Virus record (IMG/VR): IMGVR_UViG_3300020391_000004
Coordinates: 32,001 to 96,000 of that record
Direction: 5' to 3' (one strand)
DNA length: 64,000 nucleotides
DNA from: a virus
Below are positions 1 through 43,366 of this stretch, in pieces. The translations under genes and the position numbers were made by a program. The notes beneath the pieces were generated by a model. It was not told the DNA's origin, made no database searches, and saw only the letters and a list, made by a program, of their open reading frames with translations. Position 1 is the stretch's first letter. The number at the start of each line of letters is the position of its first letter.

Positions 1-183
1 ATTACTGTCAGGTTGGTTAGTTGCATTTCTAGCACTAGAAGTAATACCTACATGACCATTAGCAGTTGCTTTAGTTAAGGCTACAAGTTCTTTGGTACCT
101 GGAGTTAATCCAGTACCATCATTAAGTACACCTACTGCCATTGTACCTAAATAACTTAATTGACTGCTTGAACCGTATGCCAT
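1..183 (-). CDS. Partial hypothetical protein (runs off window), possibly tail/baseplate
   Basis: Hand translation MAYGSSSQLSYLGTMAVG... is open to the window edge; its ATG overlaps the PAAR stop (TAATG). Confidence 0.55.
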   Translation of the reverse strand, partial: MAYGSSSQLSYLGTMAVGVLNDGTGLTPGTKELVALTKATANGHVGITSSARNATNQPDSN

Positions 184-530
184 TATGTACTAAAACTTAC
201 TGTGCCTAATCCTGTTTGATTTGCAGGTGCACTATCACGTGAGCTACCTCCAACTAGCACTTTAAAATCGCCTGTCGTCCTAGGATGACCACAAGTATCA
301 ATATCCATAACTTTATGCACAGGTAGTCCTTCAGCAAATACTGTTGCACTTCCTCCAGTAACTACTGCTACACAATGAATACTACAACCCGGAACTCCAC
401 AACACGGATGTGGTGTGACAGGACTTGCAAACGCGGCTATAGGTACCATACTGCTTAGTACTGTAGGTCTGGGTGCAGTTGCTATTCCACCCGCGGCGTT
501 TATGTCGCCTATTCTTACTATTGGGAACAT
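183..530 (-). CDS. PAAR-domain spike tip protein (T4 gp5.4-like)
   Basis: PIVRIGD..GG, TVFAEGLPV..VMD..TCGHP repeats and a His/Cys metal-binding segment HPCCGVPGCSIHC. Confidence 0.85.
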   Translation of the reverse strand: MFPIVRIGDINAAGGIATAPRPTVLSSMVPIAAFASPVTPHPCCGVPGCSIHCVAVVTGGSATVFAEGLPVHKVMDIDTCGHPRTTGDFKVLVGGSSRDSAPANQTGLGTVSFST

Positions 531-559: not shown

Positions 560-850
560 TTATAATTTACAGCTAATATCAAAATCAAAATTGTCTAAAT
601 TAAAAGACTGTATTCTGTCATCTATTTTTTCTTTGGATAATGTAAGTAATCCGTTACAACCACCTTCGACGAGTAAGTTATTACGATAGTAAATTTGCGG
701 GCAAGTTTTATGCCCTGCATTTTTAAGAAATTCTCTAGCTTCTGGATTATAATCAATATTAATCTCCTCGAATTCGAAATTGTTTTCTTTTAAATAGTTC
801 ATTGCCATATGACAATAGCCACATAGGTTTTTTGTATATACTGTTATCAT
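560..850 (-). CDS. Glutaredoxin (NrdH/Grx-like)
   Basis: CGYC active site, TCPQI cis-Pro motif; start moved to MITVY at 850 (ATGA overlap with upstream ORF). Confidence 0.85.
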   Translation of the reverse strand: MITVYTKNLCGYCHMAMNYLKENNFEFEEINIDYNPEAREFLKNAGHKTCPQIYYRNNLLVEGGCNGLLTLSKEKIDDRIQSFNLDNFDFDISCKL

Positions 851-1023
851 CTTAAATAATCCTCTACACATGCATATGATACACCTGGAGGAGAAATACT
901 TTTACGATTTAATCCTTCTAGCATACATTCTTCATAAGTTTTAAAATAGTCTAGTCCTTCTCCGTTGACTTCTCCGCTAACATCTATACTGACTACAACT
1001 AATATATATCCTAAAATTAACAT
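847..1023 (-). CDS. Small hypothetical protein (58 aa) with hydrophobic N-terminus
   Basis: Hand translation MLILGYILVVVSIDVSGE...YACVEDYLR fills the gap exactly, with an ATGA overlap. Confidence 0.6.
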   Translation of the reverse strand: MLILGYILVVVSIDVSGEVNGEGLDYFKTYEECMLEGLNRKSISPPGVSYACVEDYLR

Positions 1024-1025
1024 TA

Positions 1026-2186
1026 CTACTCTCCGAAATAATCTTGTTGTACACCTTCTCTATTAAGATCTAGTGTAATACAATGTAATCCACCATCCCA
1101 AAAAAATCTATGTCTCCATGGCACATATACAGGTTCAACTTTATGCTTCTTCAAAAATGTATTTACTTGCTCATTATTTTCTTGACTTACGCAACAATGA
1201 TGTTCATCTAACATAATTACGTTTACATCAAAGACAGTTTCCTCGACATAACCAACCCAATCCTGTAACCAAGTTTCTACAAAACCTGTAAACTCATTAT
1301 TAGCTTCTTCTCCGGCAAGCCACCATTTTCCTTTATTTTTTAGTTTTAGTTTTACAAATGGACTTACTTTGTTCCAGCTCTGATTTGGTAGATAACAGAC
1401 ATCCCATCCAGGAAAAGTCTCAGAATATGTTTGTACATTGTGTAAACTTAATATTGCTCCAGGTTTAATTGGATGAAAGTTCCCATCAGAGTGGCCGTCC
1501 ATAGGTGAAAATTGTATGTCAAACTTACTAAATTCTGGAATAACTTTCATTTCATTTGGGTCAATATATGACATATAATTTTCGGGTAATTTTTTAGCAT
1601 CATATCCTACATATAATCTTTTTCCTATCATAAAAGTTCTTGCACTTGATACTCCTTCAAACCCATCTGAATATTCTAATAATTCCTGCCATACAAATGG
1701 CAAAAAATATTCCTTATTTGTCCTGTTTTCCTTAAATAATTCCCAACTAGGAAAATCTTTACCCTTAATTATATTATACTTGTCACTACTTTTAAAAAAA
1801 GGAAATTGTCTGTTAACTTTTTTTGTGAATACAGGACTATATTGCTCTAGACTATCTATTATTGACGGATGATCAAATCCTTTATGTGCAAAACAGGTGT
1901 TACCCAAAACTAATTGATAGTCTCTTACTTGTAATGGACCACGCGGATATCTACTAGGATTATCTATAAAACGTTCTGACCTATCCATTTCAGGCTGAAT
2001 TACTGTAACTCCAAAGTCTTGCAGTATATTTTTAAAACCTTGTAAATCTTCAAGGGTTTCTTCGCATATACGTTTTAATGGATCTCCAGCTTTGTCAGGT
2101 ATTCCATTGAAGAATTCAGGTGCATAGTTATTGCCCAACATACACACTTTAAGTGGATCCCACTTATTCCATATATTATATTTCAT
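1026..2186 (-). CDS. Amidinotransferase family protein (glycine/inosamine amidinotransferase-like)
   Basis: WDPLK..MLG N-terminus, QVRD, GHSDG, and C-terminal DGGLHCITLD with the catalytic Cys. Confidence 0.8.
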   Translation of the reverse strand: MKYNIWNKWDPLKVCMLGNNYAPEFFNGIPDKAGDPLKRICEETLEDLQGFKNILQDFGVTVIQPEMDRSERFIDNPSRYPRGPLQVRDYQLVLGNTCFAHKGFDHPSIIDSLEQYSPVFTKKVNRQFPFFKSSDKYNIIKGKDFPSWELFKENRTNKEYFLPFVWQELLEYSDGFEGVSSARTFMIGKRLYVGYDAKKLPENYMSYIDPNEMKVIPEFSKFDIQFSPMDGHSDGNFHPIKPGAILSLHNVQTYSETFPGWDVCYLPNQSWNKVSPFVKLKLKNKGKWWLAGEEANNEFTGFVETWLQDWVGYVEETVFDVNVIMLDEHHCCVSQENNEQVNTFLKKHKVEPVYVPWRHRFFWDGGLHCITLDLNREGVQQDYFGE

Positions 2187-2496
2187 CAGGGTAATCCCTA
2201 TATAGAAAATGATCTAAACTGTTTGCGTCAACAAGTTTACTAAAGCCTATATGTGTATTCATAGTATCTTTTTTATATAACACATGGTTCATTGCATCGT
2301 CTAAATCCTGCATAGTTTTAAACTCCATGTCAATGCGCCATTCACCTAAATTCTTACTCCTAAATCCTAGTTTCATTCTTGTAATTCTAAAATTTTGCAG
2401 TGTAGGAAGTGTAGCAAAATATTCTGTTATACGTTCTACAAACTCATTTGGCTTCACGCCTTGTGCTAGTTCTGCGTATATTGTGTAGATATTCAT
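2176..2496 (-). CDS. Small ferredoxin-like/dimeric barrel protein (DUF6614-like)
   Basis: MNIYTIYAEL..GV...FRITRMKLGFR...LGEWRIDMEF..MQDLD.A resembles DUF6614 as recalled; ATGA overlap at 2496. Confidence 0.5.
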   Translation of the reverse strand: MNIYTIYAELAQGVKPNEFVERITEYFATLPTLQNFRITRMKLGFRSKNLGEWRIDMEFKTMQDLDDAMNHVLYKKDTMNTHIGFSKLVDANSLDHFLYRDYPDEI

Positions 2497-3203
2497 TTGT
2501 ACCAAAATCCTAGTCTTGGATCATCTATATAACTAAATCCATGATCATAATCTTCTTTATATTTCCAGCCGTCTTTTTTACGTTGTTCAGCTTCTAATCT
2601 ATACTTGCTCTCCCAGGCGGGAATAAGGGTTGTAGCATTGTCTGTACCTGACCAGTCACCAAACAAATTTCCTAGACGCAAGTGTATCTCTACTATTTTA
2701 CTATCTATAAACTCTATATTCAATATATTATTATCTTTTAAATCATCTAGAAAGTCTGGTAATTGAACTGTAGGCGGATCTACTTTATGCCAACTTTCAA
2801 ACTTTAATAAGTTATCATCGTTGTTAACACCTATCGCCGCATGAATTGGTCTCCATTTATCTTTCCAAATATAGTCTACACTATAGTGATCGCCTGTCCA
2901 CCATTCAGTCCAGAATTCACTAGGATGTAAATCGAATAAAACATCTTTATCTTCTATATCAATATACATTTTACGTGCATACAACCCTAATCCTGTTAGA
3001 TTATATATAGGTCTTATACAATAATAACCACTTGTTTTTGGTAGTAAAGGAACTGGACCTACGTTATATCCTAATTTATAACTTAATTCTAATTTATTAA
3101 AAGTCCATCTATACTCAGGCTTAATATTCCACATTTCATGATTATGTTGATCAAACTGTATTTGTTGATCCAAGATTTTCTTTTCCAAAGATTTTAAATC
3201 CAT
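2493..3203 (-). CDS. Phage ATP-grasp-like protein
   Basis: KL.LS.KLGYNVGP, YCIRPIYNLTGLG, GDHYSVDY, KIVEIHLRLGN (E-x-x-x-R motif); start uncertain (3233/3203/3134). Confidence 0.45.
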   Translation of the reverse strand: MDLKSLEKKILDQQIQFDQHNHEMWNIKPEYRWTFNKLELSYKLGYNVGPVPLLPKTSGYYCIRPIYNLTGLGLYARKMYIDIEDKDVLFDLHPSEFWTEWWTGDHYSVDYIWKDKWRPIHAAIGVNNDDNLLKFESWHKVDPPTVQLPDFLDDLKDNNILNIEFIDSKIVEIHLRLGNLFGDWSGTDNATTLIPAWESKYRLEAEQRKKDGWKYKEDYDHGFSYIDDPRLGFWYK

Positions 3204-3612
3204 CGATACTTCTCTTATAATTATGTGACTCACCTAATATAATAATTTTATAACCTAATTCTTTATATATTGCACACTCTGTTTTCATGCTTTCAATACC
3301 TAATCTTAGTTTAGGATTCTCATAGTCCCAGGCAAATTGTTCACATTCTACTGCATGTTTGCTTACACAGTAAATTAAACTCCAAGCCACTAATCTATTT
3401 TTATCATAATACCCGATAAGATTATTATGTTTTGCAGTAAACTCTTCTGGATATATAGGCCACACGCTTTCCCATTTATGATGTTTTGTATATGCATCAT
3501 AAATATCCATTAACCTGTCAATCGGAGGTTTTTCATGTTTAGCAAAAACTTTGTGATCTGTAAGTGATGCTTTATAATTTGTATCCTGTAAATCAATATA
3601 ACAATAGCTCAT
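3151..3612 (-). CDS. GNAT-fold protein resembling the C-terminal domain of Arg/Leu-tRNA-protein transferase (ATE/Bpt)
   Basis: LIGYYD..RLVAWSL...FAWDY..PKLRLGI.SM..E...Y.ELGY..IILG...YK pattern. Confidence 0.5.
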   Translation of the reverse strand: MSYCYIDLQDTNYKASLTDHKVFAKHEKPPIDRLMDIYDAYTKHHKWESVWPIYPEEFTAKHNNLIGYYDKNRLVAWSLIYCVSKHAVECEQFAWDYENPKLRLGIESMKTECAIYKELGYKIIILGESHNYKRSIDGFKIFGKENLGSTNTV

Positions 3613-4091
3613 CTTGATTGCACTGCCTCTTTATATTCTTTAGTCCAATTTTTATAGTATTTTTTTGAATCAAGATATTCTCTTGCTTCTTCTAATTTAC
3701 TTCTAGATTGTATTAATAATAGACAACACTTTCCAAAGTTTAGTTTAAATCCGTCTACTTCTTCTAAATCATCTGGATGATCTTCTAATACCACTATATC
3801 ATCTTTCCCCCAAGTAGACAATGCTTTATCAAGCATACTAGATAACTGATAAGGTGTTATATTATCAGACGGAAATGCAAATATAATAACATCATTTTTA
3901 ATTAAGTCAAACTCTTCTGTCAATAATGCACCATATGCATCTACCCAACTTTTAAATTCTTTTACTTTTACTTTGTCATCCATCCATGCTTTTTTTGCAT
4001 AAGGACAAGCAGGTAAGTTGTTAAAAGTTGAACTAGGAATACTTAAAGTTTTTTGTACCCAAACTGTTAAATTGTAATAAAGATCATTCAT
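3609..4091 (-). CDS. Hypothetical protein, DUF1415-like N-terminus
   Basis: WV...L......NNLPACPYAKKAW motif; LEDHP later in the sequence. Confidence 0.4.
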   Translation of the reverse strand: MNDLYYNLTVWVQKTLSIPSSTFNNLPACPYAKKAWMDDKVKVKEFKSWVDAYGALLTEEFDLIKNDVIIFAFPSDNITPYQLSSMLDKALSTWGKDDIVVLEDHPDDLEEVDGFKLNFGKCCLLLIQSRSKLEEAREYLDSKKYYKNWTKEYKEAVQSR

Positions 4092-5262
4092 GTAAATTAT
4101 TTACCATGCCCCAATAAGGTTCTAAAAGTTTATATGTGTTTGGAAATGCTTTACTGTAATCTTGATTACGAAATATATCTTGTCGCTTTGTCCAAACTAT
4201 CATACGTTCTAAATCTTTCAAATTAGCAGTCTCAATCATTAGATAATTTTTAATGTCCTCATCTTCTATTGTATGGACTATTTTATCTTTTAAAAAATCA
4301 GGCAAGTTTGTCATTCTGTAATGATTAGGATGATCTACTATGTTAAAATGGACAGTTTTCAACTTACTACGTAACCAATTAGAAGTTTTTTGATAGTCCG
4401 CTATGTTAATTAGGCTAACACATTGACTACCTTGAAAGAACCAGTCTACTTTCGGATAACGATTTGGTAAATCTAAGAACCAATCTATATTTTTTACAGT
4501 TTTATTCCAATCTCCTGGCCAACGTAAATATGTAAACTGTTCCTCAATTCCGTCAATGCTAAAAAAAAGTTCTATACGTTTAAATTGACTCCATAACTTT
4601 TCATAGTGCTTTGCAATCTGTTGTCCATTAGTGCTGTAAAATAATGTTGTATGCTTTGCTCTATCAGCTTCTATAAGTTTTTTTAAAAGCACTGCATGAG
4701 TTTTATCCAGTAATGGTTCTCCACCAAAAAAACTTATTTTTTCCACATTGACTAAATCTTCGAGTTGGTAACTACTACTGTTATGATATGTTTTATCCCT
4801 ACGTTGTATAAAGTCATTATCTTTTGCACCATATACTTCTTCATAGTGTTTACCTTCGGGCCAATATAAACTTGTATCCCACCCTCCGCATGTCCTACAT
4901 GCAAGGTTACATACATTAGTGGTTTTAATTACAAGTTCTCTAGGACCCTTTTCCCAACCAATATTATTAGTACCATATTGATCATTAGTTCTAAGACGTA
5001 AACTATGTATACCAGCATCCTCTTCATCCCAACAACGTTTACATTCGCTAGGACGTTCTCCTTTTAAAAATTTATATCTTAAAGAATTAAGTGCAGGATG
5101 ATTCCATCTATCCTTTTGTGATGTATCGTGATTTACTTGAACTTCAATAGGACCAAAAGCACATGGACTAATCTTATCCCAGGCGGTCTGTCTTGTTGAT
5201 ACAAACGGACTACTGCAAAAATTTTTAGAGGGTGAATCCACTAAATGTGTCTTTTTCAACAT
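4084..5262 (-). CDS. Radical SAM protein with auxiliary Cys (twitch/SPASM-like) domain
   Basis: CNLACRTC (CxxxCxxC), FFGGEPLL, STNG, and N-terminal FC..PF...PC...C.RC. Confidence 0.85.
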   Translation of the reverse strand: MLKKTHLVDSPSKNFCSSPFVSTRQTAWDKISPCAFGPIEVQVNHDTSQKDRWNHPALNSLRYKFLKGERPSECKRCWDEEDAGIHSLRLRTNDQYGTNNIGWEKGPRELVIKTTNVCNLACRTCGGWDTSLYWPEGKHYEEVYGAKDNDFIQRRDKTYHNSSSYQLEDLVNVEKISFFGGEPLLDKTHAVLLKKLIEADRAKHTTLFYSTNGQQIAKHYEKLWSQFKRIELFFSIDGIEEQFTYLRWPGDWNKTVKNIDWFLDLPNRYPKVDWFFQGSQCVSLINIADYQKTSNWLRSKLKTVHFNIVDHPNHYRMTNLPDFLKDKIVHTIEDEDIKNYLMIETANLKDLERMIVWTKRQDIFRNQDYSKAFPNTYKLLEPYWGMVNNLHE

Positions 5263-6346
5263 CCTGTTTTGTACCACCAATTATGTAACTTGAGATTTCT
5301 GTTTCTTGTGGTGCAACCTGTACTTCACCACCTGCAATCCATTTACTAGTCCAAGGTAAAGGATTTGCTTGTGGAACACTATATGGACTTTTTAATCCTA
5401 CTGCATTCATACGTTTGTTTGCAATCCATTCAATATATTGATCTAATAATTGTTTGTTTAATCCTATCATTGAACCATCTTTAAACAAATAGTCCGCCCA
5501 TTGTTTTTCTTGGTCTACTGCATCAACAAACATCTGTATACAATCTTCTCTTGTTTCTTCTGCAATCTTTGCAAAATCTTTATCATCCTTAGGAAGTATT
5601 TTTAATAATTGTTGTGTCGAACCTAAGTGTACATTCTCATCACGAGCAATAAATTTAATAATTTTAGCATTGCCTTCCATCTTTTTAAGTTCTGCGAATG
5701 CCCAACTACATGCAAATGATACATAAAAACGTACACCTTCTAAAATGTTTACACTCATAAGTGTTTTATATAATAATGTTTTCAATTCATACAAATCAAT
5801 TACAATCTTCTTACCATTTACTGTATGTGTGCCTGCTCCTAATAAATTATAATATGCAGACTTTTCAATTAGTTCATCATAGCATAATGTAATACTATCT
5901 GCACAGTCTACAATCTCCTGTACGTCCATCATTTCATCAAATATTTTACTTGGATCACTGTACACGTTACGGATTATATGTGTGTAACTACGGCTATGAA
6001 TTGTTTCACTAAATGTCCATGTTGTAATCCAGTTCTCAAGTTCTGGTAAACTAGTAATAGGATTAAATGCTTCCGCAGGTGCACGACCTTGAACACTATC
6101 TAATAATATTTGTCTTTTTAAATTACTTGTAAACACATGACGTTCATTGTCAGTAAGTTCTTTAAAGTCTTTACTGTCTTTCAATATATCTACTTCCTCA
6201 GGTCTCCAAAAGAATCCTAATTGCTTGTCTGTAAGTTTATCAAAGGCACGATACTTTAGTGTATCATATCTTTGCATTCCTAGTTCTCCATCAAAGAAAC
6301 ACATTTTCTCTGTGTGGTCATGTTTACTTGTGTTTAATACGCTCAT
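5225..6346 (-). CDS. nrdB: Ribonucleotide reductase class Ia beta subunit
   Basis: FFWRPEEV, QILLDSVQGR, ETIHSRSY, LEGVRFYVSF, IARDENVH, VAPQETEISSY; start at MSVLN. Confidence 0.96.
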   Translation of the reverse strand: MSVLNTSKHDHTEKMCFFDGELGMQRYDTLKYRAFDKLTDKQLGFFWRPEEVDILKDSKDFKELTDNERHVFTSNLKRQILLDSVQGRAPAEAFNPITSLPELENWITTWTFSETIHSRSYTHIIRNVYSDPSKIFDEMMDVQEIVDCADSITLCYDELIEKSAYYNLLGAGTHTVNGKKIVIDLYELKTLLYKTLMSVNILEGVRFYVSFACSWAFAELKKMEGNAKIIKFIARDENVHLGSTQQLLKILPKDDKDFAKIAEETREDCIQMFVDAVDQEKQWADYLFKDGSMIGLNKQLLDQYIEWIANKRMNAVGLKSPYSVPQANPLPWTSKWIAGGEVQVAPQETEISSYIIGGTKQDVEKDTFSGFTL

Positions 6347-6356
6347 GGTTAGTCCT

Positions 6357-7046
6357 TTACTTTTGCGTTTTATCAAATACTAAACGAATATTTCCGTTTA
6401 GAAATGCATTGTATACTGAAAAATCTATATCTATACAAACAAAGTTTAGTTTAGAATTATATAGCTCTGCTCTAATGTAACTGTCAATAATTTGTAGATA
6501 TTTAGTATCAGGACTAAATTTTTTAAAATCATAAATTCCAAGGAAATCTAAATGTTCTGTTCTTTCCATCATCCTTGCTAAATTAAAAGTTACAAATGCT
6601 CTGCCTTTGTCTGACAAAACAAGATTTATTTGATACAATCTTTCATTTATTTGAGTGATTGGAATAAAGTGTATTGCATTAATAGAAATCAATGATTGTA
6701 TAGCATTCTCATATTTGTTAATAAAATTGTAATTAAAAGTATCACATAAATCAGCCTTATCATTTTCTGGATCAATACCAATTATTTCAGGATAGTATTT
6801 TTTTAATAAATTACTTCCGCAACCAATATCGTAAATAGTGCCTGTATTTTTTTCAGTTAATAAATTTGTATAATAAAAAGATGCAATTGAAAAACAACTA
6901 GTCATGCAATCTTCACGTGGTGATGAAAACGCTTGACTTACTTCATTATCTATAATTAGATCGTAATCGTTTTTGATTTGCTTTCCAATATCTGTAAGTA
7001 AAAAACTTTCTTTAAATCCAGATGGCATTTGATTTATATTTTCCAT
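6357..7046 (-). CDS. Class I SAM-dependent methyltransferase-like protein inserted between nrdA and nrdB
   Basis: IYDIGCGSN glycine motif, GIDP, INAIHF. Confidence 0.6.
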   Translation of the reverse strand: MENINQMPSGFKESFLLTDIGKQIKNDYDLIIDNEVSQAFSSPREDCMTSCFSIASFYYTNLLTEKNTGTIYDIGCGSNLLKKYYPEIIGIDPENDKADLCDTFNYNFINKYENAIQSLISINAIHFIPITQINERLYQINLVLSDKGRAFVTFNLARMMERTEHLDFLGIYDFKKFSPDTKYLQIIDSYIRAELYNSKLNFVCIDIDFSVYNAFLNGNIRLVFDKTQK

Positions 7047-7048
7047 TT

Positions 7049-9349
7049 TTATATCGTACATGCCTCACAGTCTTCCTCAATTATTTCGTCCTCTGGAATT
7101 TGCAAGTTTACAGTATCAACAAGTTCACTCATATTGTCTCCACTGCCGTCAAATGTGTTAAAATAATATAATTGTTTAGTACCATATTTATATGCCATTA
7201 ATAAATGTTGCAACATAGTACTCATTGGTATTTTTTCTTCTTCGAAGTGTTGCGGATTATAACTAGTGTTTACACTTATTCCTTGGTCAATATATTTTTG
7301 TAATACTGCCATTATTTTTATATAACCTTCAGGACTTTTTTGATCCCATAATAATTCATACTTATTTTTATATCTATAAAATCCAGGAACAACTTGTTTC
7401 AGAACACCATCTTTACTTTGTTTTACACTTACAAATGCTCTAGGTGGTTCAATACCGTTTGTAGCATTTGATATTTGTGCAGATGTTTCGCTAGGCATTA
7501 GTGCCATTAATGTGCTATTACGTATTCCTGTTTCACTTAATTGTTTACGTAAGCCTGTCCAATCCATACGTTCCTTATGTACTATAAGATCATCAACATC
7601 TTTTTTATATGTTTGATTAGGCGTTATGCCATCACTATACTTCGTTTCATTGTTTCCAGGACAAGCACCTTCCTCGGTTGCTAGATCTGCACTTGCTTTT
7701 ATTAAGTAATAACTCCATGCTTCTGCATATTCATCTACTAAATCTAAATTAGGATTACTATAGTTTGTATCATTTTTTGCTAAAAAATATGCAAGATTAA
7801 TTATACCAATGCCTAAAGGTCTGCGTTTTATTGTGCTTGCCTGTGCAGCCTTTACAGGATAGTCTTGATATGTAAGTAGTGCATCAAGTCCACGCACTGC
7901 AAGTTCGCATGGCTTTTTAAAATCTTCTGGTTTACGAATATTACCCCAATTTACTGCACTTAAAGTACAAAGTGCAATTTCTCCTTCTTCATCATTAAAG
8001 TCGTTTAATGGTTTAGTAGGCAAATCAATTTCACAACATAAATTACTTTGTCTTATAGGAGCGACTTCTGTTTTAAAACTACTATGTTCATTTGCATGGT
8101 CAACATTCTGTAAATATATTCTTCCTGTGTTTTTACGTTCTTCCATAAAACTTGCAAATAAAGCACTAGCAGGAATAGATTTTTTACGTATACTAGTTTT
8201 ACGTTCTGCTTGTTCGTATAATTTTTTAAATTTATCTTGGTCTGCAAAAAAGGATTCATATAATCCAGGCACATCATGCGGAGAGAACAATGTAATGTTT
8301 CCACCAGATATCAAACGTTCATAGAATAATTTACTAAACTGTACGCCATAATCCATATGTCTTACTCTATTATCCTCTGTTCCTTTATTGTTCTTTAGCA
8401 CTAACAATTCTTCAATTTCATAATGCCAAATAGGATAGTAAAGTGTTGCAGCACCATTACGAACTCCACCTTGACTACAACTTCTAGTAGCACTTTGAAA
8501 CATTTTATAAAATGGTATTACACCTGTGTGGTAAGCGTCTCCGTTTCTAATTGGTGAACCCAATGCACGAATACTTCCTGCTCCAATCCCAATGCCTGCT
8601 TTCTGGGATACGTACTTAACGATACTGCTAGTAGTAGCATTAATACTGTCCAAGCTATCTGCAGTTTCAATGAGTACACAGGACGAAAACTGCCTTTGCG
8701 GCGTTCGTACGCCAGCCATAACAGGAGTAGGCAAACTAATATCAAAGGTAGATATTGCATCATAATAATCCTTTACATATTGCATACGTATGTTTTTTGG
8801 ATAATGTGCAAACAAAGTTGCCGCAATCAATACATATGCCATTTGTGGTGTTTCATATATTGTATTTGTTACACGATTTTTGACAAGGTATTTACCCCTA
8901 AACTGTTCCATAGCCGCATAGGTTAGTTCTTCATCTCTATCATGTTTAATAAAGTTATTAATTACACTCCATTCATCTTCATCGTAACTTGTTATTAATT
9001 CTTTATCATAAAATCCAATGTCAACATTACGTTGTACTAGTTTCTTAATATGCCATGGTTCGAATTGTCCATATACCATTTTACGTAAATGATAATTAAT
9101 TAATCTTCCTCCAACATATTGATAACCTGGTGTTTCTTCGCTTATCAAATCTGCCGCACTTTTTATTAGTGTTTCCTGAATATCTACGCTAGGTATACCA
9201 TCATAAAATTGTACATTGCTACGTAATTCAACTTCGCTTTCACTTACACCTGTAACACCTTCACAGGCATAAAAAACGACCTTGTGGAGTTTTTCCAAGT
9301 CAAGGTCTTCTGTAGTTCCATCTCTTTTTTTAACTTGTATATTGTTCAT
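7049..9349 (-). CDS. nrdA: Ribonucleotide reductase class Ia alpha subunit
   Basis: N-terminal ATP cone (VKKRDG), FSSCVLI, SNLCCEI, PSETSAQI, C-terminal CEACTI. Confidence 0.97.
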   Translation of the reverse strand: MNNIQVKKRDGTTEDLDLEKLHKVVFYACEGVTGVSESEVELRSNVQFYDGIPSVDIQETLIKSAADLISEETPGYQYVGGRLINYHLRKMVYGQFEPWHIKKLVQRNVDIGFYDKELITSYDEDEWSVINNFIKHDRDEELTYAAMEQFRGKYLVKNRVTNTIYETPQMAYVLIAATLFAHYPKNIRMQYVKDYYDAISTFDISLPTPVMAGVRTPQRQFSSCVLIETADSLDSINATTSSIVKYVSQKAGIGIGAGSIRALGSPIRNGDAYHTGVIPFYKMFQSATRSCSQGGVRNGAATLYYPIWHYEIEELLVLKNNKGTEDNRVRHMDYGVQFSKLFYERLISGGNITLFSPHDVPGLYESFFADQDKFKKLYEQAERKTSIRKKSIPASALFASFMEERKNTGRIYLQNVDHANEHSSFKTEVAPIRQSNLCCEIDLPTKPLNDFNDEEGEIALCTLSAVNWGNIRKPEDFKKPCELAVRGLDALLTYQDYPVKAAQASTIKRRPLGIGIINLAYFLAKNDTNYSNPNLDLVDEYAEAWSYYLIKASADLATEEGACPGNNETKYSDGITPNQTYKKDVDDLIVHKERMDWTGLRKQLSETGIRNSTLMALMPSETSAQISNATNGIEPPRAFVSVKQSKDGVLKQVVPGFYRYKNKYELLWDQKSPEGYIKIMAVLQKYIDQGISVNTSYNPQHFEEEKIPMSTMLQHLLMAYKYGTKQLYYFNTFDGSGDNMSELVDTVNLQIPEDEIIEEDCEACTI

Positions 9350-9439: not shown

Positions 9440-11014
9440 TTATTTTATTATTCTTATAGAGTATTTAAAACTAGCACTGCTACCTGTACTTGTAGTAACA
9501 TAATTAAGTGTAGTTATATTTGAGCTATTTGTCAAGGAAAAAGTAACACCGACGCTACCATTATTTTCTTGAAAGTTATCATTTATCACTTGCCCATTTG
9601 CATCATGTGTAATAGATAACACACCTTGACGCTTTGCAGTGCCTCTTGTAAGTAGATACTCAATCTCAACTGCATTTTCTAAACTATTGTTGTCACTAAA
9701 TGTAATACCACTTGACTTTGAACTGTTATCGTCTAAAGTAATAGTAGCACCATACTGTCTTGCATAGTGTCCAATTTCCACTTGTGTAGTATCAATAGCA
9801 GTGCCTTTGTGATTAACTCTTTTCTTTGTTGTTGTAACATCAGTTAGTGGACGTTCAAAGTCATCACTTATACTGTTATTTCCTGTTGTAGCAAAATTTA
9901 TAACATGAGTATTAGCATTTCCAATGCCTAAGTTATTATTTGCACAGTCTTTAAATGTATTGAATGCACTTGTAAAGCCAGGGCCTGCAAATACATGTAT
10001 TGCATGGTTGTATATGTCATCAAATAAACTATTTGTAACTTTTATCCCACGTGGTCCATCTACACTAGGAGCACTTCCTGTTATGTTTTCACCAATTTTA
10101 AATCCTTTAAATGCTGTATTAAATTCGCATCCACTAAATGTTATACTACTCATATCATGGTCTGCATTTACTAGTAAATTGGACTTTGTAAAAGTACAAC
10201 CAACAAAGTGAACATGTTCAGTTTCTCTCGAATTAGAACTTTCTAATTTTAAAGTAGTTGCACTGTTTCCAATTGCAGTAGGCACAGTAGTTTGAAATCC
10301 TTGAAAACGACAATGACTAAATGTAACATTTTGTCCTTGATTAACAACAAAACTATCTACTGTATCAACACTTGCAAAAAAAGTTAATCCAGCAATGTTT
10401 ACTTCTCCAGGTAGGCTTGCACTACTTGCTCCAACACTTCCGTCAATTTGTTGTAATGCATCTGCAGTCATTGCTATACAATCTGGTGTTGTACTTGTTG
10501 CTTTAATTATACTACTATCATGTCCTTCACCTATTAATGTTGCATAGGTAGGTATTTTTAGTATATCAGTCACTATATATGTTCCTGCAGGAAAAAATAA
10601 TGCTCTACGTATTTCTGTGTTTAAAGCTCTACTATATAACTGAAATAAAGCACGGTTAATTGCTACAGTATCATCTGTTGTTCCGTCACCTTTAGCACCA
10701 AAATCTTTTACACTTGCATGATCATCAAACTTTTGTAGCATAGTACGTGTAATAGGATTGTTTGCAGTAGTGCCAGTAGTAGCATTATATCCACTTGCGG
10801 CTCCTTTATATGTGTATGTATCTGCACTATCTAACAAATCACTATTAGCAGTAAGTAATTCTATATTTTCTATTTTAGGAGCGTCAGTACCACCATTTCC
10901 TATATAAAGTCTTCTTGTATCGACTGCAAGTCCTAACTCGCCTACTGCAAGTTGTGGTAAATTATCTGCAACACCTCTTCTATGTTGAATGCGTGAAATT
11001 TGTACTATAGCCAC
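9440..11014 (-). CDS. Tail fibre/spike protein with Mtd_N-like anchor and pectate-lyase-like beta-helix
   Basis: IQHRRG...LAVGELGLAVDTRRLYIGNG; SVKDFGAKGDGTTDDTVAINRA; FFPAGTY. Confidence 0.7.
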   Translation of the reverse strand: MAIVQISRIQHRRGVADNLPQLAVGELGLAVDTRRLYIGNGGTDAPKIENIELLTANSDLLDSADTYTYKGAASGYNATTGTTANNPITRTMLQKFDDHASVKDFGAKGDGTTDDTVAINRALFQLYSRALNTEIRRALFFPAGTYIVTDILKIPTYATLIGEGHDSSIIKATSTTPDCIAMTADALQQIDGSVGASSASLPGEVNIAGLTFFASVDTVDSFVVNQGQNVTFSHCRFQGFQTTVPTAIGNSATTLKLESSNSRETEHVHFVGCTFTKSNLLVNADHDMSSITFSGCEFNTAFKGFKIGENITGSAPSVDGPRGIKVTNSLFDDIYNHAIHVFAGPGFTSAFNTFKDCANNNLGIGNANTHVINFATTGNNSISDDFERPLTDVTTTKKRVNHKGTAIDTTQVEIGHYARQYGATITLDDNSSKSSGITFSDNNSLENAVEIEYLLTRGTAKRQGVLSITHDANGQVINDNFQENNGSVGVTFSLTNSSNITTLNYVTTSTGSSASFKYSIRIIK

Positions 11015-18771: not shown

Positions 18772-19026
18772 TTAGCTATTTAAAACCATAAACAGTAGAG
18801 CACCACAACTAGCAACTAATGCACTAATTATACCTATACCCCAACCAATCAATTGCTGATTGCGTTCTGTTTTTTGTTTTATAATCATGTCTCGCATTTC
18901 CATTAACATTTTTTCAAATTTATCCATGCGACTGCCCAAGTTCTTCAATTCTCTATGCAACCCATTATACCTTTCAGAACACAAATCTACATGTGCTTCT
19001 AAAGATTCTTTTTCTAAATCGGACAT
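18772..19026 (-). CDS. Coiled-coil protein with C-terminal TM helix (XhlA/holin-like)
   Basis: LEAHVDLCSERY coiled coil then LIGWGIGIISALVASCGALLFMV. Confidence 0.5.
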   Translation of the reverse strand: MSDLEKESLEAHVDLCSERYNGLHRELKNLGSRMDKFEKMLMEMRDMIIKQKTERNQQLIGWGIGIISALVASCGALLFMVLNS

Positions 19027-19032
19027 TTTCTA

Positions 19033-19132
19033 ATCACCTTCCTTGGGGTGATGTCTAGATATTTCTTTAATTTAGTTTGTGCCTGTTTTATTTTTATGTG
19101 TGCCTATTTTTCTAGCATCAGTTTTATTTATG
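19033..19132 (-). promoter_or_regulatory. Late promoter plus leader with two AGGCACA boxes and an RBS-sequestering hairpin
   Basis: CATAAATAAAAC 19121-19132; AGGCACA at 19099-19105 and 19078-19084; ATCACC/GGTGAT stem 19033-19052. Confidence 0.55.
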
Positions 19133-19607
19133 CTACAGTAACGGCTTCAAAAAACTGTATGTTAATATGTTCACTATCTTTTGTATGAAATACACTAGGT
19201 AAAAGATCAATTGTATTATTTAAATTTGGAACAACAGGGATCATATCAAAAACGTCATGCAATCTTTCAAGTTTTTTTCCAAAAACTCCTTGATGTTCGC
19301 TACCAATAGCAAATGTCCAAAAGTTTAGACTAGGCTTTAGCATTTCAAATTCAAATTTATATCTAGTCCCTAGTATCTTATATAGCACACTGCCTTTCAT
19401 AATATCCTTATTTGTAAATGTATCATGCAAAGGCGATTCTAATACAATAGGTTGTGTCAAAATACCTATAGTTTGCAATATTGTGTCCCAATTACGTTGT
19501 TGATTACGTTCAATACTGTCACCTCTTGTAACTCCAGTAGGTGTACAATCTACTAGTGTGATTCCCCATACTGCAGTTGGTACATCAAACATTATATGGA
19601 TCCTCAT
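19128..19607 (-). CDS. Hypothetical protein
   Basis: TLVDCT.TGV...RNQQRNW.T..Q.IG..TQP segment; start uncertain. Confidence 0.55.
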   Translation of the reverse strand: MRIHIMFDVPTAVWGITLVDCTPTGVTRGDSIERNQQRNWDTILQTIGILTQPIVLESPLHDTFTNKDIMKGSVLYKILGTRYKFEFEMLKPSLNFWTFAIGSEHQGVFGKKLERLHDVFDMIPVVPNLNNTIDLLPSVFHTKDSEHINIQFFEAVTVA

Positions 19608-36703: not shown

Positions 36704-37538
36704 AGCGTTTTCCCGCCCATGCTTGTGTAGGTTTGTAGTCTGCTATGTTTGTTGGGTAATACTGCCAATTTTCTATCTCATATCCTAAATATTTTTCAAT
36801 TAAATTGTCTAAGTATCCTTGCTGATACACACAAAAATTACTAATGTTAAGAGGTATATTATTAATATAACATATAAATGCATACTGTACAAGTTCTTTT
36901 GATTGCAATATTTTCTTTTTATTTTTTATAAAGTCTTCCCACTTTTTGTCTAAGCCAACACTGTATTCATATCCTAGATTCTTTAAACACAATTTACATT
37001 CTAGTAAGAATTTTTCTTTATTGTAAAACCATCCAAATTTAAAAATTCTTTGTATATCTTTATTTTTTGCATGTTCATTATGTTTCATTAAAAGACCGTT
37101 ATTTGGTCTGTGCATAAGTTTAAAAAATTCACGCATACCAGTCAGACCATCATTTTGAAAAACTTCTGCTTGTTTAAATATATTGCCAAGTGGTTTACTA
37201 TCACTACTTTCCCCTTTGAAGCTAATTTTATCTTTGAAGTCCCATAAATTTTTAAAACTATTAATTTTTAACAAATCTAAACCAAACTCGCCACCAGCAT
37301 AAAATAAGTGCCACATCAAAATATGTAGATCGTCTACATTAGCTTCAATATTACACCATATATCATTTTCTTCGCAACTATGAACATGATCTACAATTTT
37401 GTTGAAATTTCCATTAGCATGAGCACCTTTTTTATCCGCATAAAAATTAAAGTCTTGTTGTACTCCAGATGCTACACTAAGACTTCTAGACAAAAAATTT
37501 CCATGTGACCCAGCTGGAAATAACAACTTAGGTAACAT
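36693..37538 (-). CDS. P-loop/sulfotransferase-like protein, paralog 2
   Basis: FPAGSHGNFLSRSL; start probably MLPKL. Confidence 0.35.
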   Translation of the reverse strand: MLPKLLFPAGSHGNFLSRSLSVASGVQQDFNFYADKKGAHANGNFNKIVDHVHSCEENDIWCNIEANVDDLHILMWHLFYAGGEFGLDLLKINSFKNLWDFKDKISFKGESSDSKPLGNIFKQAEVFQNDGLTGMREFFKLMHRPNNGLLMKHNEHAKNKDIQRIFKFGWFYNKEKFLLECKLCLKNLGYEYSVGLDKKWEDFIKNKKKILQSKELVQYAFICYINNIPLNISNFCVYQQGYLDNLIEKYLGYEIENWQYYPTNIADYKPTQAWAGKRYDI

Positions 37539-38217
37539 TACTAATTGCCTCCCGTAATTTATTCTTAGGCACATTAATATGGCGTTTATCGCAAACTTTT
37601 TCTATAACACACGTGTCACATTTAGGATTTCTACTTTTACAAATCCTTTTTGCATGTGTAATTAGTTGCATATGAGCCGCATACTTATATCTATCAGGAG
37701 TAGAATTATTTACAAGCACTGCACTTTTGCCTTCGTCTAAAGTGTCAGTCCAACCTAGTCTCCATAATAATCTGAACACATGAGTATCAACTGCAATGTG
37801 AGGCTGATTAAAAACAAAACGCATTACAATATCACTACTTTTTCTGCCTACGCCAGGAAGTTTCATTAGTTCTTTTTGTGTTTGAGGCACAACGCCATTG
37901 TATTGTTCAATTAATATTTTACTAGTCGCTAATATATTTTTTGACTTTGCGTTATATAAACCTGCAGGCTTTATTGCTTCTATAATATCTTCCTGTGTCA
38001 ATTTAATCATATCCCAAGCATTATCTGCTAAAGAAAATAGTTGTCTACACGCTACTGCAGTTCTTGCATCTTGACTTTGTGCTGATAACATTACACCAAT
38101 AAGACTAGTGTATGCATGTTTATGTATTTTAGCATCTGGTTTTTTATTCCTATACTTAGGCCAATAACTACTTAATTGTTCATATATGAAATCAATTTGT
38201 TCTTTATTTTTCATCAT
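37528..38217 (-). CDS. nth: Endonuclease III (HhH-GPD DNA glycosylase with 4Fe-4S)
   Basis: LSAQSQD, LPGVGRKS, AVDTHVFR, C-x6-C-x2-C-x5-C. Confidence 0.92.
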   Translation of the reverse strand: MMKNKEQIDFIYEQLSSYWPKYRNKKPDAKIHKHAYTSLIGVMLSAQSQDARTAVACRQLFSLADNAWDMIKLTQEDIIEAIKPAGLYNAKSKNILATSKILIEQYNGVVPQTQKELMKLPGVGRKSSDIVMRFVFNQPHIAVDTHVFRLLWRLGWTDTLDEGKSAVLVNNSTPDRYKYAAHMQLITHAKRICKSRNPKCDTCVIEKVCDKRHINVPKNKLREAISNVT

Positions 38218-38224
38218 AGTCCCG

Positions 38225-39112
38225 TCATTTAACTTTCCCTAAAATTTGTAAATCATTTATTGCTAGTTTGTCTACATTTTGAGGCGATACTGCTAGTACC
38301 ATACCATAGCCACCATTAAAAATAGTTAAAAATTCTCGCATATTCATTTTATCTTGGCACTTAAAATATAAGTCAGACCACCATCCCTCTCTTTTAAAAT
38401 TAAGTCCATTGTCCAAAGTTACTTCTAAAGTGTGTTCTCTACCTTTTAACATTCTTGGAATATTCTCAATAAGACCACCACCAGTAATATGTGATACACC
38501 GTTAATGAACTGGTGGTTATTTAATATTTCATTTGTGTAAATTCTTGTGGGCGTAAGTGGTATTTCATTGAGTGGTAATATTTTTCTTAACATACTGAAC
38601 CCATTTGAATGTGGGCCACTTGAGGGGATACCGACAAGAATATCACCTTCTTGTACAATTCTAGGAAAATGTCTATCCACTACAGTACCTACCACGAACC
38701 CAGCAAGATCAAACTTTGATCCTTCATAAACTCCAGGCATCTCGGCAGTTTCACCACCCATAAGAGTACAACCAGCAAGTTCACAACCTTTTAATATTCC
38801 ATTAAGTATTTCTTTTGATTTATCTAGACATATTTCTCCTGTTGCATAATAATCAAGAAATCCTATAGGTTGTGCAAATTTACATAGGATATCGTTTACA
38901 CACATTGCTACAAGATCAATACCTATAGTATCAAACTTATCATGACCTTCTGCTACTAAAATCTTTGTACCAACTCCGTCTGTGGATATTACAACTTCCT
39001 CTCCACCAATCATTATAGAAGCACCGAAATCTTTGAATCCAAGATATTTTGCTATCTTATTTCCTTTTTCAATATTCACTCCAGCATCAGAATATGCGTT
39101 CGTTTTCATCAT
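38225..39112 (-). CDS. purM: Phosphoribosylformylglycinamidine cyclo-ligase (AIR synthase)
   Basis: Y..AGVNI, TDGVGTK, AMCVND, GGETAEMPG, HSNGFS, HITGGGL; start MMKTN. Confidence 0.93.
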   Translation of the reverse strand: MMKTNAYSDAGVNIEKGNKIAKYLGFKDFGASIMIGGEEVVISTDGVGTKILVAEGHDKFDTIGIDLVAMCVNDILCKFAQPIGFLDYYATGEICLDKSKEILNGILKGCELAGCTLMGGETAEMPGVYEGSKFDLAGFVVGTVVDRHFPRIVQEGDILVGIPSSGPHSNGFSMLRKILPLNEIPLTPTRIYTNEILNNHQFINGVSHITGGGLIENIPRMLKGREHTLEVTLDNGLNFKREGWWSDLYFKCQDKMNMREFLTIFNGGYGMVLAVSPQNVDKLAINDLQILGKVK

Positions 39113-39792
39113 AGCCCTGCTTCTTTTAAAATGTGTTTTACCCATTCAGTATCTGCAAAGTAATCTACAAATTTACGTTTCCAAAAATCTGGATCAATAT
39201 ATGGAAATACCATTTCTATTTGTTCAGTACTTAGTTTGTTCAATGCATCTTGTCCGCTAGTACAATTATAAATTATCCAACTACTAATACGACCTGTAGT
39301 GATATCTTTAACAAGAACATTGCTACTAACATAATAAAAATAATGATTAAATATACTTTCCTTTTGTTCCGCCCATGCTTCCATAGTTTTTATACTGCGT
39401 TCTAATGCATCTTGTGTTGCTTCTGTACGTAAATGTTCAAACAAGTATTCTTGATATACAATATCTTTTGTCCAATAGTCTAGTTTCTTATTTTTTGCTA
39501 TAACCCAGTCAATAAATTTTTGTGTATTGATAGCACGAATGTTTACCATATGTCTGCCAAACTTTACAAATGCATTGTAGTATGGACTTGTACTAAAGTC
39601 AGTATATGTTTTAAACTTAGCACTGCCTTGTGTAAGTTCATAAAATCGGAGATAAGCAGTCATGCCTAATTTGACCCCGGGCTCATGTTCTTGCTGAGCA
39701 CGACGCTTAGGTTCGCAAAGGTGGGCAGCAAGTGTAGACTCCTTGCGAAACTCCTTGCCACAGTATTGGCATTTGTAATCTTTTGTTTCCAT
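39109..39792 (-). CDS. Hypothetical protein with N-terminal Zn-finger
   Basis: C-x2-C...H.C (CQYCGKEFRKESTLAAHLC). Confidence 0.6.
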   Translation of the reverse strand: METKDYKCQYCGKEFRKESTLAAHLCEPKRRAQQEHEPGVKLGMTAYLRFYELTQGSAKFKTYTDFSTSPYYNAFVKFGRHMVNIRAINTQKFIDWVIAKNKKLDYWTKDIVYQEYLFEHLRTEATQDALERSIKTMEAWAEQKESIFNHYFYYVSSNVLVKDITTGRISSWIIYNCTSGQDALNKLSTEQIEMVFPYIDPDFWKRKFVDYFADTEWVKHILKEAGL

Positions 39793-39839
39793 TTTACGAT
39801 TTATTATAGCATCTTTTATTATTTCTGTAAACTGTTGAT

Positions 39840-40478
39840 TCATCTTATTTCATTTATCCACAGCTCGTAATATTTTTTAATCCATTCGGATACACTATCA
39901 AAGTCAGTGTATCCTAAACAATTGTAAAATGATCTTAGCCCGTTAACGGTAGTTGATATATCTTCATACCAATTTGTATTCCAAACTAAGTCTGTTTGGC
40001 TCCACCATTTTTCTTCTTTATGCATACTGTGACTAAATCTTTTACTTAAAAAAGTTTCACAATTTACAAAAATAATTTCTTTCGCATTAGGAAATACTTT
40101 TAAATTGGAATATCTAGTATGTTCATCATGACACACATAAAAGAAGTCATAATTTATTTGTTTTGTTAATTGTATAGCAGTATCATTAAATGGCAACCCT
40201 ACTTCTAACTCGCCTAATATTGCTCCATGTTCAAGTGTGCCACTTAATTTTAGATCACCAAATAATTCATTACATCCTAATCCTAAATCATTCCAAGGGC
40301 CACTATGTCCTTTTATTTTGTTAATAAGGAATGTCTTTTTTTGTTCCTGTGTATAATGGATTAAGTCCTGATGTTGTAAAACTGCATGATTACTAACTCC
40401 TAAACAATTAATAAGAAACTTACCTCCAGCACCTGGCGGATAACATACAAAAATAATTTTGTTAGTTTCGTAATTCAA
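39840..40478 (-). CDS. P-loop/sulfotransferase-like protein, paralog 3
   Basis: YPPGAGGKFLINCL. Confidence 0.35.
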   Translation of the reverse strand: MNYETNKIIFVCYPPGAGGKFLINCLGVSNHAVLQHQDLIHYTQEQKKTFLINKIKGHSGPWNDLGLGCNELFGDLKLSGTLEHGAILGELEVGLPFNDTAIQLTKQINYDFFYVCHDEHTRYSNLKVFPNAKEIIFVNCETFLSKRFSHSMHKEEKWWSQTDLVWNTNWYEDISTTVNGLRSFYNCLGYTDFDSVSEWIKKYYELWINEIR

Positions 40479-42879: not shown

Positions 42880-43366
42880 TGCTAACGATTTCGTTTTGCT
42901 TGTTGATTTCTTTGGCGCAGTAAACGCATTTTGGGTTCTCAACACCAGTTTCAATGGGTATTGCAAGTATCTGTCCTTGTTTAAGTTTGGGAAAGAACCA
43001 TTTAACATCACTATAAATATCCACTATATTTACAGGTAAGTAATCATGCCTAAAATCTCCAAGTGGATTGAATAAAAACGCATCAAATCCTCTATCGTTT
43101 AGACTACTAAACGCCAACATTTCTAAGTCTCCGCAATGTTTATCACCTATTAGTATTTTCCAATCAACAGGCATACGTATTTTATGTTTGCCTATTTCTA
43201 AAACTACTGCCGGACTGTTAAAACTTTCTAAAAATATAAGCGGAATAAAAAAGTAATCAGGATCTGCTGGATTGCTATTATCTAAAATAGCAAATCTAAG
43301 ATCATCAACCTCATCAGGTATATCATTCATTTCATATGCAGTATTTTCTAAAGTTAAAATCCGCAT
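42863..43366 (-). CDS. Hypothetical protein
   Basis: MRILTLEN...PLIFLESFNSPAVVL; coupled to the ClpP-like gene (TAATG). Confidence 0.6.
   Translation of the reverse strand: MRILTLENTAYEMNDIPDEVDDLRFAILDNSNPADPDYFFIPLIFLESFNSPAVVLEIGKHKIRMPVDWKILIGDKHCGDLEMLAFSSLNDRGFDAFLFNPLGDFRHDYLPVNIVDIYSDVKWFFPKLKQGQILAIPIETGVENPKCVYCAKEINKQNEIVSIDRAW

Follow-up and report, generated by a model that had tools for sequence, protein, structure and literature searches.

Bacterial small-molecule pathways are known in which amidinotransferases, ATP-grasp ligases and heme-thiolate hydroxylases act on arginine-type compounds. In Pseudomonas syringae and Erwinia, the hsvABC operon combines an amidinotransferase with ATP-grasp amide ligases and yields phevamine A from amidinospermidine (PMC6187163). 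The argolaphos cluster encodes AglA/AlpD, an N-hydroxylase of the YqcI/YcgG family, together with the ATP-grasp enzyme AlpC and the GNAT-type ligases AlpF/AlpO, for which the use of aminoacyl-tRNA has been proposed (PMC8976061; PMC12866846). AglA itself is a heme-thiolate guanidine N-hydroxylase (PMC12866846). The family DUF6875 comprises the cytochrome P422 enzymes, thiolate-ligated b-heme hydroxylases with the motif RxGxVCP and a four-stranded sheet sandwiched by helices, which hydroxylate tryptophan at N1, C6 or C7 (bioRxiv 10.64898/2025.12.11.692455). Here we describe a cassette of six phage genes that resembles each of these systems in some of its parts. It lies in a stretch of 64,000 nucleotides (the window), bases 32001-96000 of the 131.6-kb linear IMG/VR virus record IMGVR_UViG_3300020391_000004, and encodes an amidinotransferase, a DUF6614 protein, a protein with an ATP-grasp fold (p246), a protein resembling aminoacyl-tRNA transferases (p153), a small protein that we call p160, and a radical S-adenosylmethionine (SAM) protein (rSAM).

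The cassette resembles the hsv operon in bringing together a predicted arginine-dependent amidinotransferase and an ATP-grasp protein, and HsvA (5wpi) is among the best Protein Data Bank (PDB) matches of the profile of the phage amidinotransferase. However, hsv has two ATP-grasp enzymes, whereas the ATP-grasp gene of the phage cassette is a rare accessory. Furthermore, hsv has no oxygenase, tRNA-type transferase, DUF6614 protein or rSAM, its acceptor is spermidine, and it is not carried by a phage as the present cassette is. The argolaphos cluster also brings together three enzyme kinds that the cassette has or, in the case of p160, would have, and no PDB chain matched the p160 model better than AglA. 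Unlike argolaphos, the phage cassette has no phosphonate genes, and it has an amidinotransferase that argolaphos does not have. p160 is 160 amino acids (aa) long, whereas the deposited sequence of AglA has 274 aa (243 in the chain used for the comparison); p160 does not match the YqcI_YcgG profile and is without the C-terminal substrate loop. P422 and DUF1415 share with p160 a Cys-Pro near the N-terminus and a four-stranded, helix-sandwiched sheet, and they are the sole Pfam families that p160 relatives matched repeatedly; yet P422 enzymes have 180-300 aa and act on tryptophan, and the p160 matches are below the cut-off and N-terminal where seen. Last, ATE1/Bpt transferases and ClpS offer a parallel in that relatives of p153 match the ATE_C family and the same phage encodes ClpS and ClpP, but p153 has just 153 aa, is without the ATE_N domain and lies about 16 kb from the ClpS gene.

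Based on these comparisons and the analyses below, we tentatively favour a model in which the cassette encodes a pathway of modular make-up, spread horizontally among phages, for the oxygenation, amidination and aminoacylation of an arginine- or guanidino-type, amino-acid-derived compound, most likely a small molecule. We favour this model because both of the frequent partners of p160 are predicted to perform arginine-type chemistry or amino-acid transfer, and because known small-molecule pathways (hsv, argolaphos) cluster these kinds of enzyme. The translational coupling of the six genes and the invariance of the catalytic residues of the amidinotransferase lend it further support. Each cassette enzyme belongs to a known superfamily, and the set resembles those that tailor secondary metabolites. 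We found no paper describing this enzyme combination in phages; an earlier note on this DNA, made from the letters alone, likewise knew of no described phage system of this composition.

p160 and the heme-thiolate hydroxylases

We regard p160 as the hub of the cassette. Its family gave 1568 matches in a 90%-identity collection, with 1013 clusters at 50% identity. Homologs, annotated as 'hypothetical protein', occur in the cultured cyanomyoviruses Syn1, S-RIM44, S-RIM32 and S-PM2, in Puniceispirillum phage HMO-2011 (SAR116) and in roseobacter phages. When 66 diverse members were aligned, the sole invariant columns were Cys29-Pro30, which lie in the motif PPCP[YF]A, and Asp104-His105-Pro106, Gln128 and Tyr145-Tyr146 were nearly invariant.

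Three lines of evidence connect p160 to heme-thiolate enzymes. First, when the 66 members were scanned one by one against Pfam, DUF6875 was matched by 36 (best 3e-5), DUF1415 by 18 (best 1.3e-4) and any other family by two at most. Second, an AlphaFold2 (AF2) model of p160, with a predicted local distance difference test (pLDDT) score of 86.6, displayed four strands flanked by helices, a layout like that of P422. The best match of this model among 48,161 representative PDB chains was AglA (9ub3), with a root-mean-square deviation (rmsd) of 4.3 over 149 of the 160 residues, and the next row of the search had a Z of 4.4. The aligned ranges bring Cys29 of p160 close to Cys44, the heme ligand of AglA (PMC12866846). 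Third, an hhalign comparison of alignment A5 with the YqcI/YcgG alignment A6 aligned the Cys motifs only, placing the p160 Cys with the HPC of YqcI/YcgG. Each of these lines is weak alone. However, because the sub-threshold DUF6875 and DUF1415 matches, the structural match to AglA and the alignment of the Cys motifs combine, the best reading of them taken together is that p160 is probably a compact thiolate-heme oxygenase. The p160 family would appear to be a small branch of the heme-thiolate oxygenases that has not been described before. If this is true, a 'hypothetical' family of marine phages would form a new class of such oxygenases of very small size, with consequences for phage auxiliary metabolism and for biocatalysis by N-hydroxylation.

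Several results weigh against this assignment and against the pathway of which it is part. The p160 of the window has no Pfam match of its own. All of the DUF6875 and DUF1415 matches of its relatives lie under the curated cut-off, and those to DUF6875 (PF21780), where shown, cover the N-terminal ~60 profile positions and only the N-terminal third, around the Cys motif. The Z of 6.6 between p160 and AglA is below 8, in a range reachable by chance arrangements, and the hhalign comparison gave a probability of 12% (E 0.0024). In addition, p160 is much shorter than AglA and the P422 enzymes and is without their substrate loops. The YqcI_YcgG profile PF08892 had no match at E<=1 in the whole phage record. 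Apart from these points, a search of PDB sequences with the p160 profile returned noise only, and DUF6875 sequences for a profile-profile comparison were sought in 401 Bacteroidota genomes, where neither these nor the control genomes gave a match.

Weak scores of this kind could also mean that p160 is not an enzyme. It may be a small adaptor, carrier or substrate that p153, the amidinotransferase and rSAM modify at the invariant Cys or elsewhere; its small size would suit such a role, and so would the fact that p160 stays constant while the enzymes beside it change. We consider this unlikely, as the conserved polar set (C29-P30, D104-H105-P106, Q128, Y145-Y146) resembles an active site, p160 is alone in many phages, and the signal recurs to two specific families, one of which is a shown thiolate-heme enzyme.

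The enzymes that accompany p160

The amidinotransferase was identified through a profile, A1, built from 14 phage relatives. This profile matched human AGAT (9.7e-17), SxtG (2.6e-13), HsvA (6.2e-13) and StrB1 (1.7e-8) in the PDB, and the match to AGAT ran in two stretches, profile positions 5-240 and 308-372, that make up most of the protein. As a single sequence, the protein had no Pfam match and aligned with solved amidinotransferases through its C-terminal 65 aa only (4.9e-5). Residues D89, H232, D234 and C369 were invariant in the 14 sequences and aligned with D170, H303, D305 and C407 of AGAT. The earlier note had recognized the catalytic Cys in GGLHC (Cys369) and a His-x-Asp motif (His232-Ser-Asp234), and both are among these invariant residues. 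The position of the AGAT triad residue Asp254 is occupied by Ser in the window copy and most relatives, in a region where the alignment is of low confidence, and by Asp in loci L015/L017 and in a second paralog in the window. These results support the assignment of the protein to the AGAT/StrB1/SxtG/HsvA family, and we predict that it passes the amidino group of arginine to Cys369 and from there to an amine.

The second paralog is 45% identical to the first copy (BLASTP 6e-110; A1 profile 1.5e-130; phrog_25854 9.6e-18). It lies three genes downstream of the ClpP gene, in an overlapping array that also holds four unassigned open reading frames (ORFs) and genes for a C2H2 zinc-finger protein, a PurM-like AIR-synthase-related protein and an endonuclease III-like protein (Table 1). 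Two amidinotransferase paralogs also stand close together elsewhere: in tandem in L009 (8001-10270), and in L019 (8001-11296) with a gp47-like phosphoesterase gene between them. A 270-aa gene precedes the lone amidinotransferases of L005, L014, L019 and L020; it matches no Pfam family and none of the cassette profiles. In HMO-2011, gp65, a 'virion structural protein' that adjoins the p160 homolog, was considered as a further amidinotransferase and was rejected, as the A1 profile gave no match.

p153 appears to be a stand-alone, ATE_C-like GNAT domain of the ATE1/Bpt aminoacyl-tRNA-protein transferase type. This assignment is supported by its relatives, as eight of 11 close ones matched ATE_C (best 2e-9), in line with the transferase-like label of the earlier note. 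The p153 profile matched yeast-type ATE1 structures at 0.054 with the motif region aligned, and its neighbours in a language-model atlas carry ATE_C/Acetyltransf_6. The ATE_C region begins after no more than about 35 residues. p153 had no match among 50,697 cultured-phage records. We also considered whether Bpt might be split here, with p160 supplying the ATE_N part, and rejected this, as p160 gave no ATE_N signal and its model is unlike ATE1 structures.

The DUF6614 protein clearly matches its family (PF20319), as had been noted earlier: it scored 59.1 bits (5.4e-16) where the cut-off is 25, and it aligned with 107 of 116 profile positions. Invariant in its relatives are R40, R43, K45, G47-F-R-S50, H85, H99 and R103-D104. 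Its language-model neighbours are DUF4286 and DUF6974, and its profile found noise only and no sequence match in the PDB. Our literature search found no function for DUF6614 or DUF1415.

p246 is supported by its predicted structure as a minimal protein of the ATP-grasp fold, a putative ligase that appears to be without the usual N-terminal domain and to be an accessory module. Its AF2 model (pLDDT 88.9) gave 52 Foldseek matches at E<=1e-3, of which those listed were all ATP-grasp enzymes; the top ones were PylC (the best, 7.7e-6), an ATP-grasp peptide ligase, L-amino-acid ligases and PurK. A VIA comparison reached Z 12.3 (rmsd 3.4-4.1 over about 210-220 of 236 residues), with 260 chains at Z>=8. 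The protein matches phrog_3577 (2e-23) and is ~130-180 residues shorter than typical ATP-grasp members. K37, E164, E172, H174 and R176 are invariant, and the block 'NIEF..K.IE.HLR' resembles the E-x-N-x-R region. rSAM is a clear member of the N-terminal-twitch radical SAM family NF033640 (N_Twi_rSAM; 2.7e-74, with 250.7 bits where the cut-off is 170) and also matches Pfam Radical_SAM (1.7e-8). In alignment A8, which includes the fusion protein P0244, C16/C34/C74/C77 of the N-terminal twitch and C118/C122/C125 of the CX3CX2C motif are invariant. Thus, the fold and family labels that the earlier note gave to these two proteins, and its labels for the amidinotransferase and for p160 as DUF1415-like (18 of 66 relatives), all stand.

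Linkage across viral loci and a proposed pathway

We compared 20 viral loci found via the amidinotransferase and 80 found via p160; the viral records compared are all fragments. p160 was accompanied by p153 and/or the amidinotransferase in 52 of the 80 p160 loci. p153 adjoined it in 44 of them, which makes the p160-p153 pair the commonest architecture (the pair alone in 17-18 loci), and the amidinotransferase was present in 27, eight of them without p153. DUF6614 was found in 19 of the 80, every one with p153. The rSAM of the window type adjoined p160 only here and in L108, where the gene order is nrdA-nrdB-rSAM-p160-p153-glutaredoxin (grx). Two fusion proteins were found. In P0303, p160 is followed by a full amidinotransferase (A1 profile 1.1e-117; A3 profile 3.2e-33), and in P0244 an N-twitch rSAM, with an architecture like that of the window rSAM, is followed by p160.

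The flanks of the p160 loci vary and include genes for a helicase, baseplate proteins, a 2-oxoglutarate (2OG) oxygenase, other rSAM proteins, ribonucleotide reductase (RNR) and a nucleotidase. Because these flanks differ so widely, the association is not one inherited neighbourhood. Because of the two fusions, and because the neighbourhood of p160, p153, DUF6614 and amidinotransferase recurs in unrelated contexts, we conclude that p160 forms a functional core together with p153 (plus DUF6614), with the amidinotransferase, or with both, and that this core is mobile across contexts. rSAM and the ATP-grasp protein are optional, sporadic additions to it. The earlier note had read the six genes as one joint pathway and tied this to their co-conservation. 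Its core set survives, as p160, p153, DUF6614 and the amidinotransferase occur together in many contexts. The fixed six-gene composition does not, and the role of p160 as hub and putative oxygenase had been missed.

The genes of the cassette also occur singly. p160 was alone in 28 of the 80 loci, often adjoining clamp-loader gp62 and regA, and is alone in cultured cyanophages as well; thus, p160 does not need the other enzymes. The amidinotransferase was alone in seven of the 20 loci found through it (L005, L014-L017, L019 and L020), was without p160 or p153 also in L011 and L012, and was seen between baseplate genes and gp46/gp47. rSAM was without the other cassette genes in L109-L111, and a homolog of p246 stands alone in Synechococcus phage ACG-2014f. 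Such solitary copies would be expected if the six genes had no joint function and were a chance stack of independent accessory modules at a hot spot between nrdB and grx, coupled by compact packing, and overlapping starts are usual from nrdA to grx. This explanation is doubtful in view of the two fusion proteins and of the core neighbourhood repeated in unrelated contexts.

Some p160-p153 pairs have other neighbours. A different radical SAM protein, of 302 aa, is encoded directly beside the pair in L078 (4467-5375), and a 2OG-Fe(II) oxygenase in L104 (5372-5977). The p160-p153-DUF6614 set is also on L021 (183 kb) and L022 (148 kb), two contigs that are binned as a Haliscomenobacter metagenome-assembled genome but have the look of large phage sequences. 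In L021, a pair of amidinotransferase and rSAM genes lies 6 kb away on the opposite strand.

The characterised enzymes to which p160 appears to be related hydroxylate amino acids, either free or derivatised, the donor of amidinotransferases is arginine, and ATE-type enzymes use aminoacyl-tRNA, in the case of ATE1 arginyl-tRNA. In the tailoring pathway that we favour, of which we infer the substrates, the order of steps and the small-molecule product, p160 would bind heme and hydroxylate an N-H (or C-H) of the substrate with host ferredoxin-type reductants. The amidinotransferase would move the amidino group of L-arginine, via a thiouronium intermediate on Cys369, onto an amine, and may either make the guanidino group for p160 or pass on one that is already oxygenated. 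p153 would transfer an amino acid from aminoacyl-tRNA onto an amine of the same scaffold, with the DUF6614 protein as its possible helper. In this phage, the ATP-grasp ligase would form a further amide bond and the twitch rSAM would carry out a radical step. If this pathway exists, phages carry an assembly logic like that of secondary metabolism, with amidino transfer, amide bonds formed at the expense of aminoacyl-tRNA or ATP, and radical steps.

YqcI/YcgG enzymes hydroxylate the N-H groups of guanidines. A more specific version of the pathway, which we think improbable, is that p160 represents a third miniaturised thiolate-heme 'sandwich' branch beside P422 and YqcI/YcgG, present in a high proportion of marine phages, which together with the amidinotransferase and the tRNA-type transferase would produce N-hydroxyguanidine-type compounds from arginine. 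Such compounds could quench the RNR tyrosyl radical, donate nitric oxide or feed N-N bond chemistry, and would give phages a small-molecule means to control host metabolism or competitors.

To the points already raised against p160 must be added others that count against the pathway as a whole. Apart from the loci in which p160 is alone, p246 was present in only two of the 80 p160 loci and three of the 20 amidinotransferase loci, and because the ATP-grasp and rSAM genes are so rarely present a fixed six-step pathway is unsupported. The p153 of the window scored under the cut-off for Pfam ATE_C (0.0031, 18.5 bits against 25), and ATE_N was matched by none of 11 p153 members. Genes for a ferredoxin, S-adenosylmethionine decarboxylase, spermidine synthase or arginine metabolism were sought and none was found in the 131.6-kb record, which is a fragment.

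In the Cys branch of the eukaryotic Arg/N-degron pathway, an N-terminal Cys is oxidised before ATE1 arginylates it, so that an oxygenase acts ahead of a transferase. The main rival to small-molecule tailoring is that p153 works on proteins of the host or the phage and, in a Bpt/ATE1-like manner, extends their N-termini by an amino acid taken from aminoacyl-tRNA. Before this step, p160 would oxidise the residue at the N-terminus. Where that residue is of the Lys or Arg type it would be remodelled by the amidinotransferase, and the phage ClpS and ClpP would read and degrade the tagged proteins. ATE_C is the sole family signal of p153, and the commonest architecture is the p160-p153 pair. The phage encodes ClpS at record position 18900-19133 (1.8e-19), ~13 kb before the window start, and a ClpP-family protease (3.1e-33) within the window, and ClpS was found in seven of 10 viral records with p153 compared with none of five without it. 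Moreover, the closest paper that we found, on cyanophages, names amidinotransferase genes 'antibiotic synthesis genes' and reports that a virion proteome included one such protein, an amidinotransferase relative (PMC12801897). However, the ClpS-positive records, which like the others are fragments, all share a spacing of 8-16 kb between ClpS and the cassette, and because of this same spacing and genome layout the correlation may be phylogenetic and probably reflects one lineage. p153 is without ATE_N and falls under the ATE_C cut-off in its window copy, we saw no protein that would be a likely substrate, and neither p160 nor the DUF6614 protein has a conserved Asp, Glu or Cys at its N-terminus. 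The fusions of p160 to the amidinotransferase and to rSAM are more typical of consecutive metabolic steps. We consider protein tagging rather unlikely; if it were true, the cassette would be the first case of an N-degron writer that a phage encodes and that acts with ClpS and ClpP of that phage.

The gene array and its surroundings

The six cassette genes are co-directional and lie on the minus strand between nrdB and the glutaredoxin gene, within one tightly packed array that runs from nrdA to a PAAR-like spike protein (Table 1). The earlier note described overlapping stop and start codons, and reading the junctions directly bears this out. The rSAM stop and the p160 start overlap by 8 nucleotides (nt), ATGAATGA; the p160/p153 and p246/DUF6614 junctions are both ATGA; and the overlaps are 53 nt for p153/p246, 11 nt for DUF6614/amidinotransferase and 38 nt for nrdB/rSAM. 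Overlapping starts are the rule along the entire array from nrdA to grx. The span given in that note, 847-5262, does hold the six-gene array, but from position 847 it also takes in a 58-aa ORF that is not conserved. This ORF overlaps the start of the glutaredoxin gene (850) in an ATGA, is kept in L001 alone among 20 related loci, and has no family match in Pfam, PHROGs or NCBIfam. Similarly, the 234-aa ORF between nrdA and nrdB has no match in these three collections and is missing between nrdA and nrdB of related loci.

Table 1. Positions of the cassette genes and other features in the window.
Feature	Position	Strand	Remarks
PAAR-like spike-tip protein	183-530	-	downstream of glutaredoxin
glutaredoxin (grx)	560-850	-	
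58-aa ORF	847-1023	-	hydrophobic N-terminus; between amidinotransferase and glutaredoxin
amidinotransferase	1026-2186	-	AGAT/StrB1/SxtG/HsvA family
DUF6614 protein	2176-2496	-	106 aa from ATG at 2496
p246	2493-3203	-	ATP-grasp fold; 236 aa from ATG at 3203
p153	3151-3612	-	ATE_C-like
p160	3609-4091	-	"DUF1415-like"
radical SAM (rSAM)	4084-5262	-	NF033640; ATG at 5262
nrdB	5225-6376	-	
234-aa ORF	6357-7061	-	between nrdA and nrdB; 13-nt overlap with nrdA stop
nrdA	7049-9349	-	
524-aa protein	9440-11014	-	weak tail-spike/pre-neck-appendage matches; immediately upstream of nrdA
endonuclease III-like protein	37528-38217		in the array of the second amidinotransferase paralog
PurM-like AIR-synthase-related protein	38225-39145		in the array of the second amidinotransferase paralog
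C2H2 zinc-finger protein	39109-39843		in the array of the second amidinotransferase paralog
second amidinotransferase paralog	40462-41529	-	three genes downstream of ClpP
ClpP-family protease	43366-43944	-	

The position of the cassette between nrdB and glutaredoxin in this lineage raises another possibility, namely that it works as part of an RNR operon and furnishes a nucleotide, or the DNA of the phage, with a guanidino or aminoacyl group. Campylobacter phages carry a modified guanine and have genes annotated as amidinotransferase-like, and radical SAM enzymes act in known thymidine hypermodification. The Campylobacter phage matches, however, span just the C-terminal 18% of the amidinotransferase, and most of the other loci are not near nucleotide-metabolism genes. 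Neither a thymidylate-synthase-like hydroxymethylase nor TGT/DpdA was found in the 131.6-kb record, again bearing in mind that it is a fragment. DNA or nucleotide hypermodification is thus a very improbable function for the cassette.

Scans for sigma-70-type promoters, terminators and the T4 late-promoter motif TATAAATA gave nothing above chance within the cassette, and no tRNA genes were found in the window. The window has a GC content of ~0.33, and nearly all of its genes are on the minus strand. CheckV estimated the record to be 38% complete, and from its 131.6 kb the whole genome would have roughly 350 kb. In a DNA-level comparison with cultured phages, nrdB was the sole matching part, and its nearest DNA matches were the 350-kb jumbo phages GAP32, XaC1 and K64-1. 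This suggests that the phage is a marine relative of the GAP32/XaC1/K64-1 group of jumbo myoviruses. The nucleotide-metabolism array of this phage has virion genes on both flanks, the 524-aa protein on one side and the PAAR-like protein on the other.

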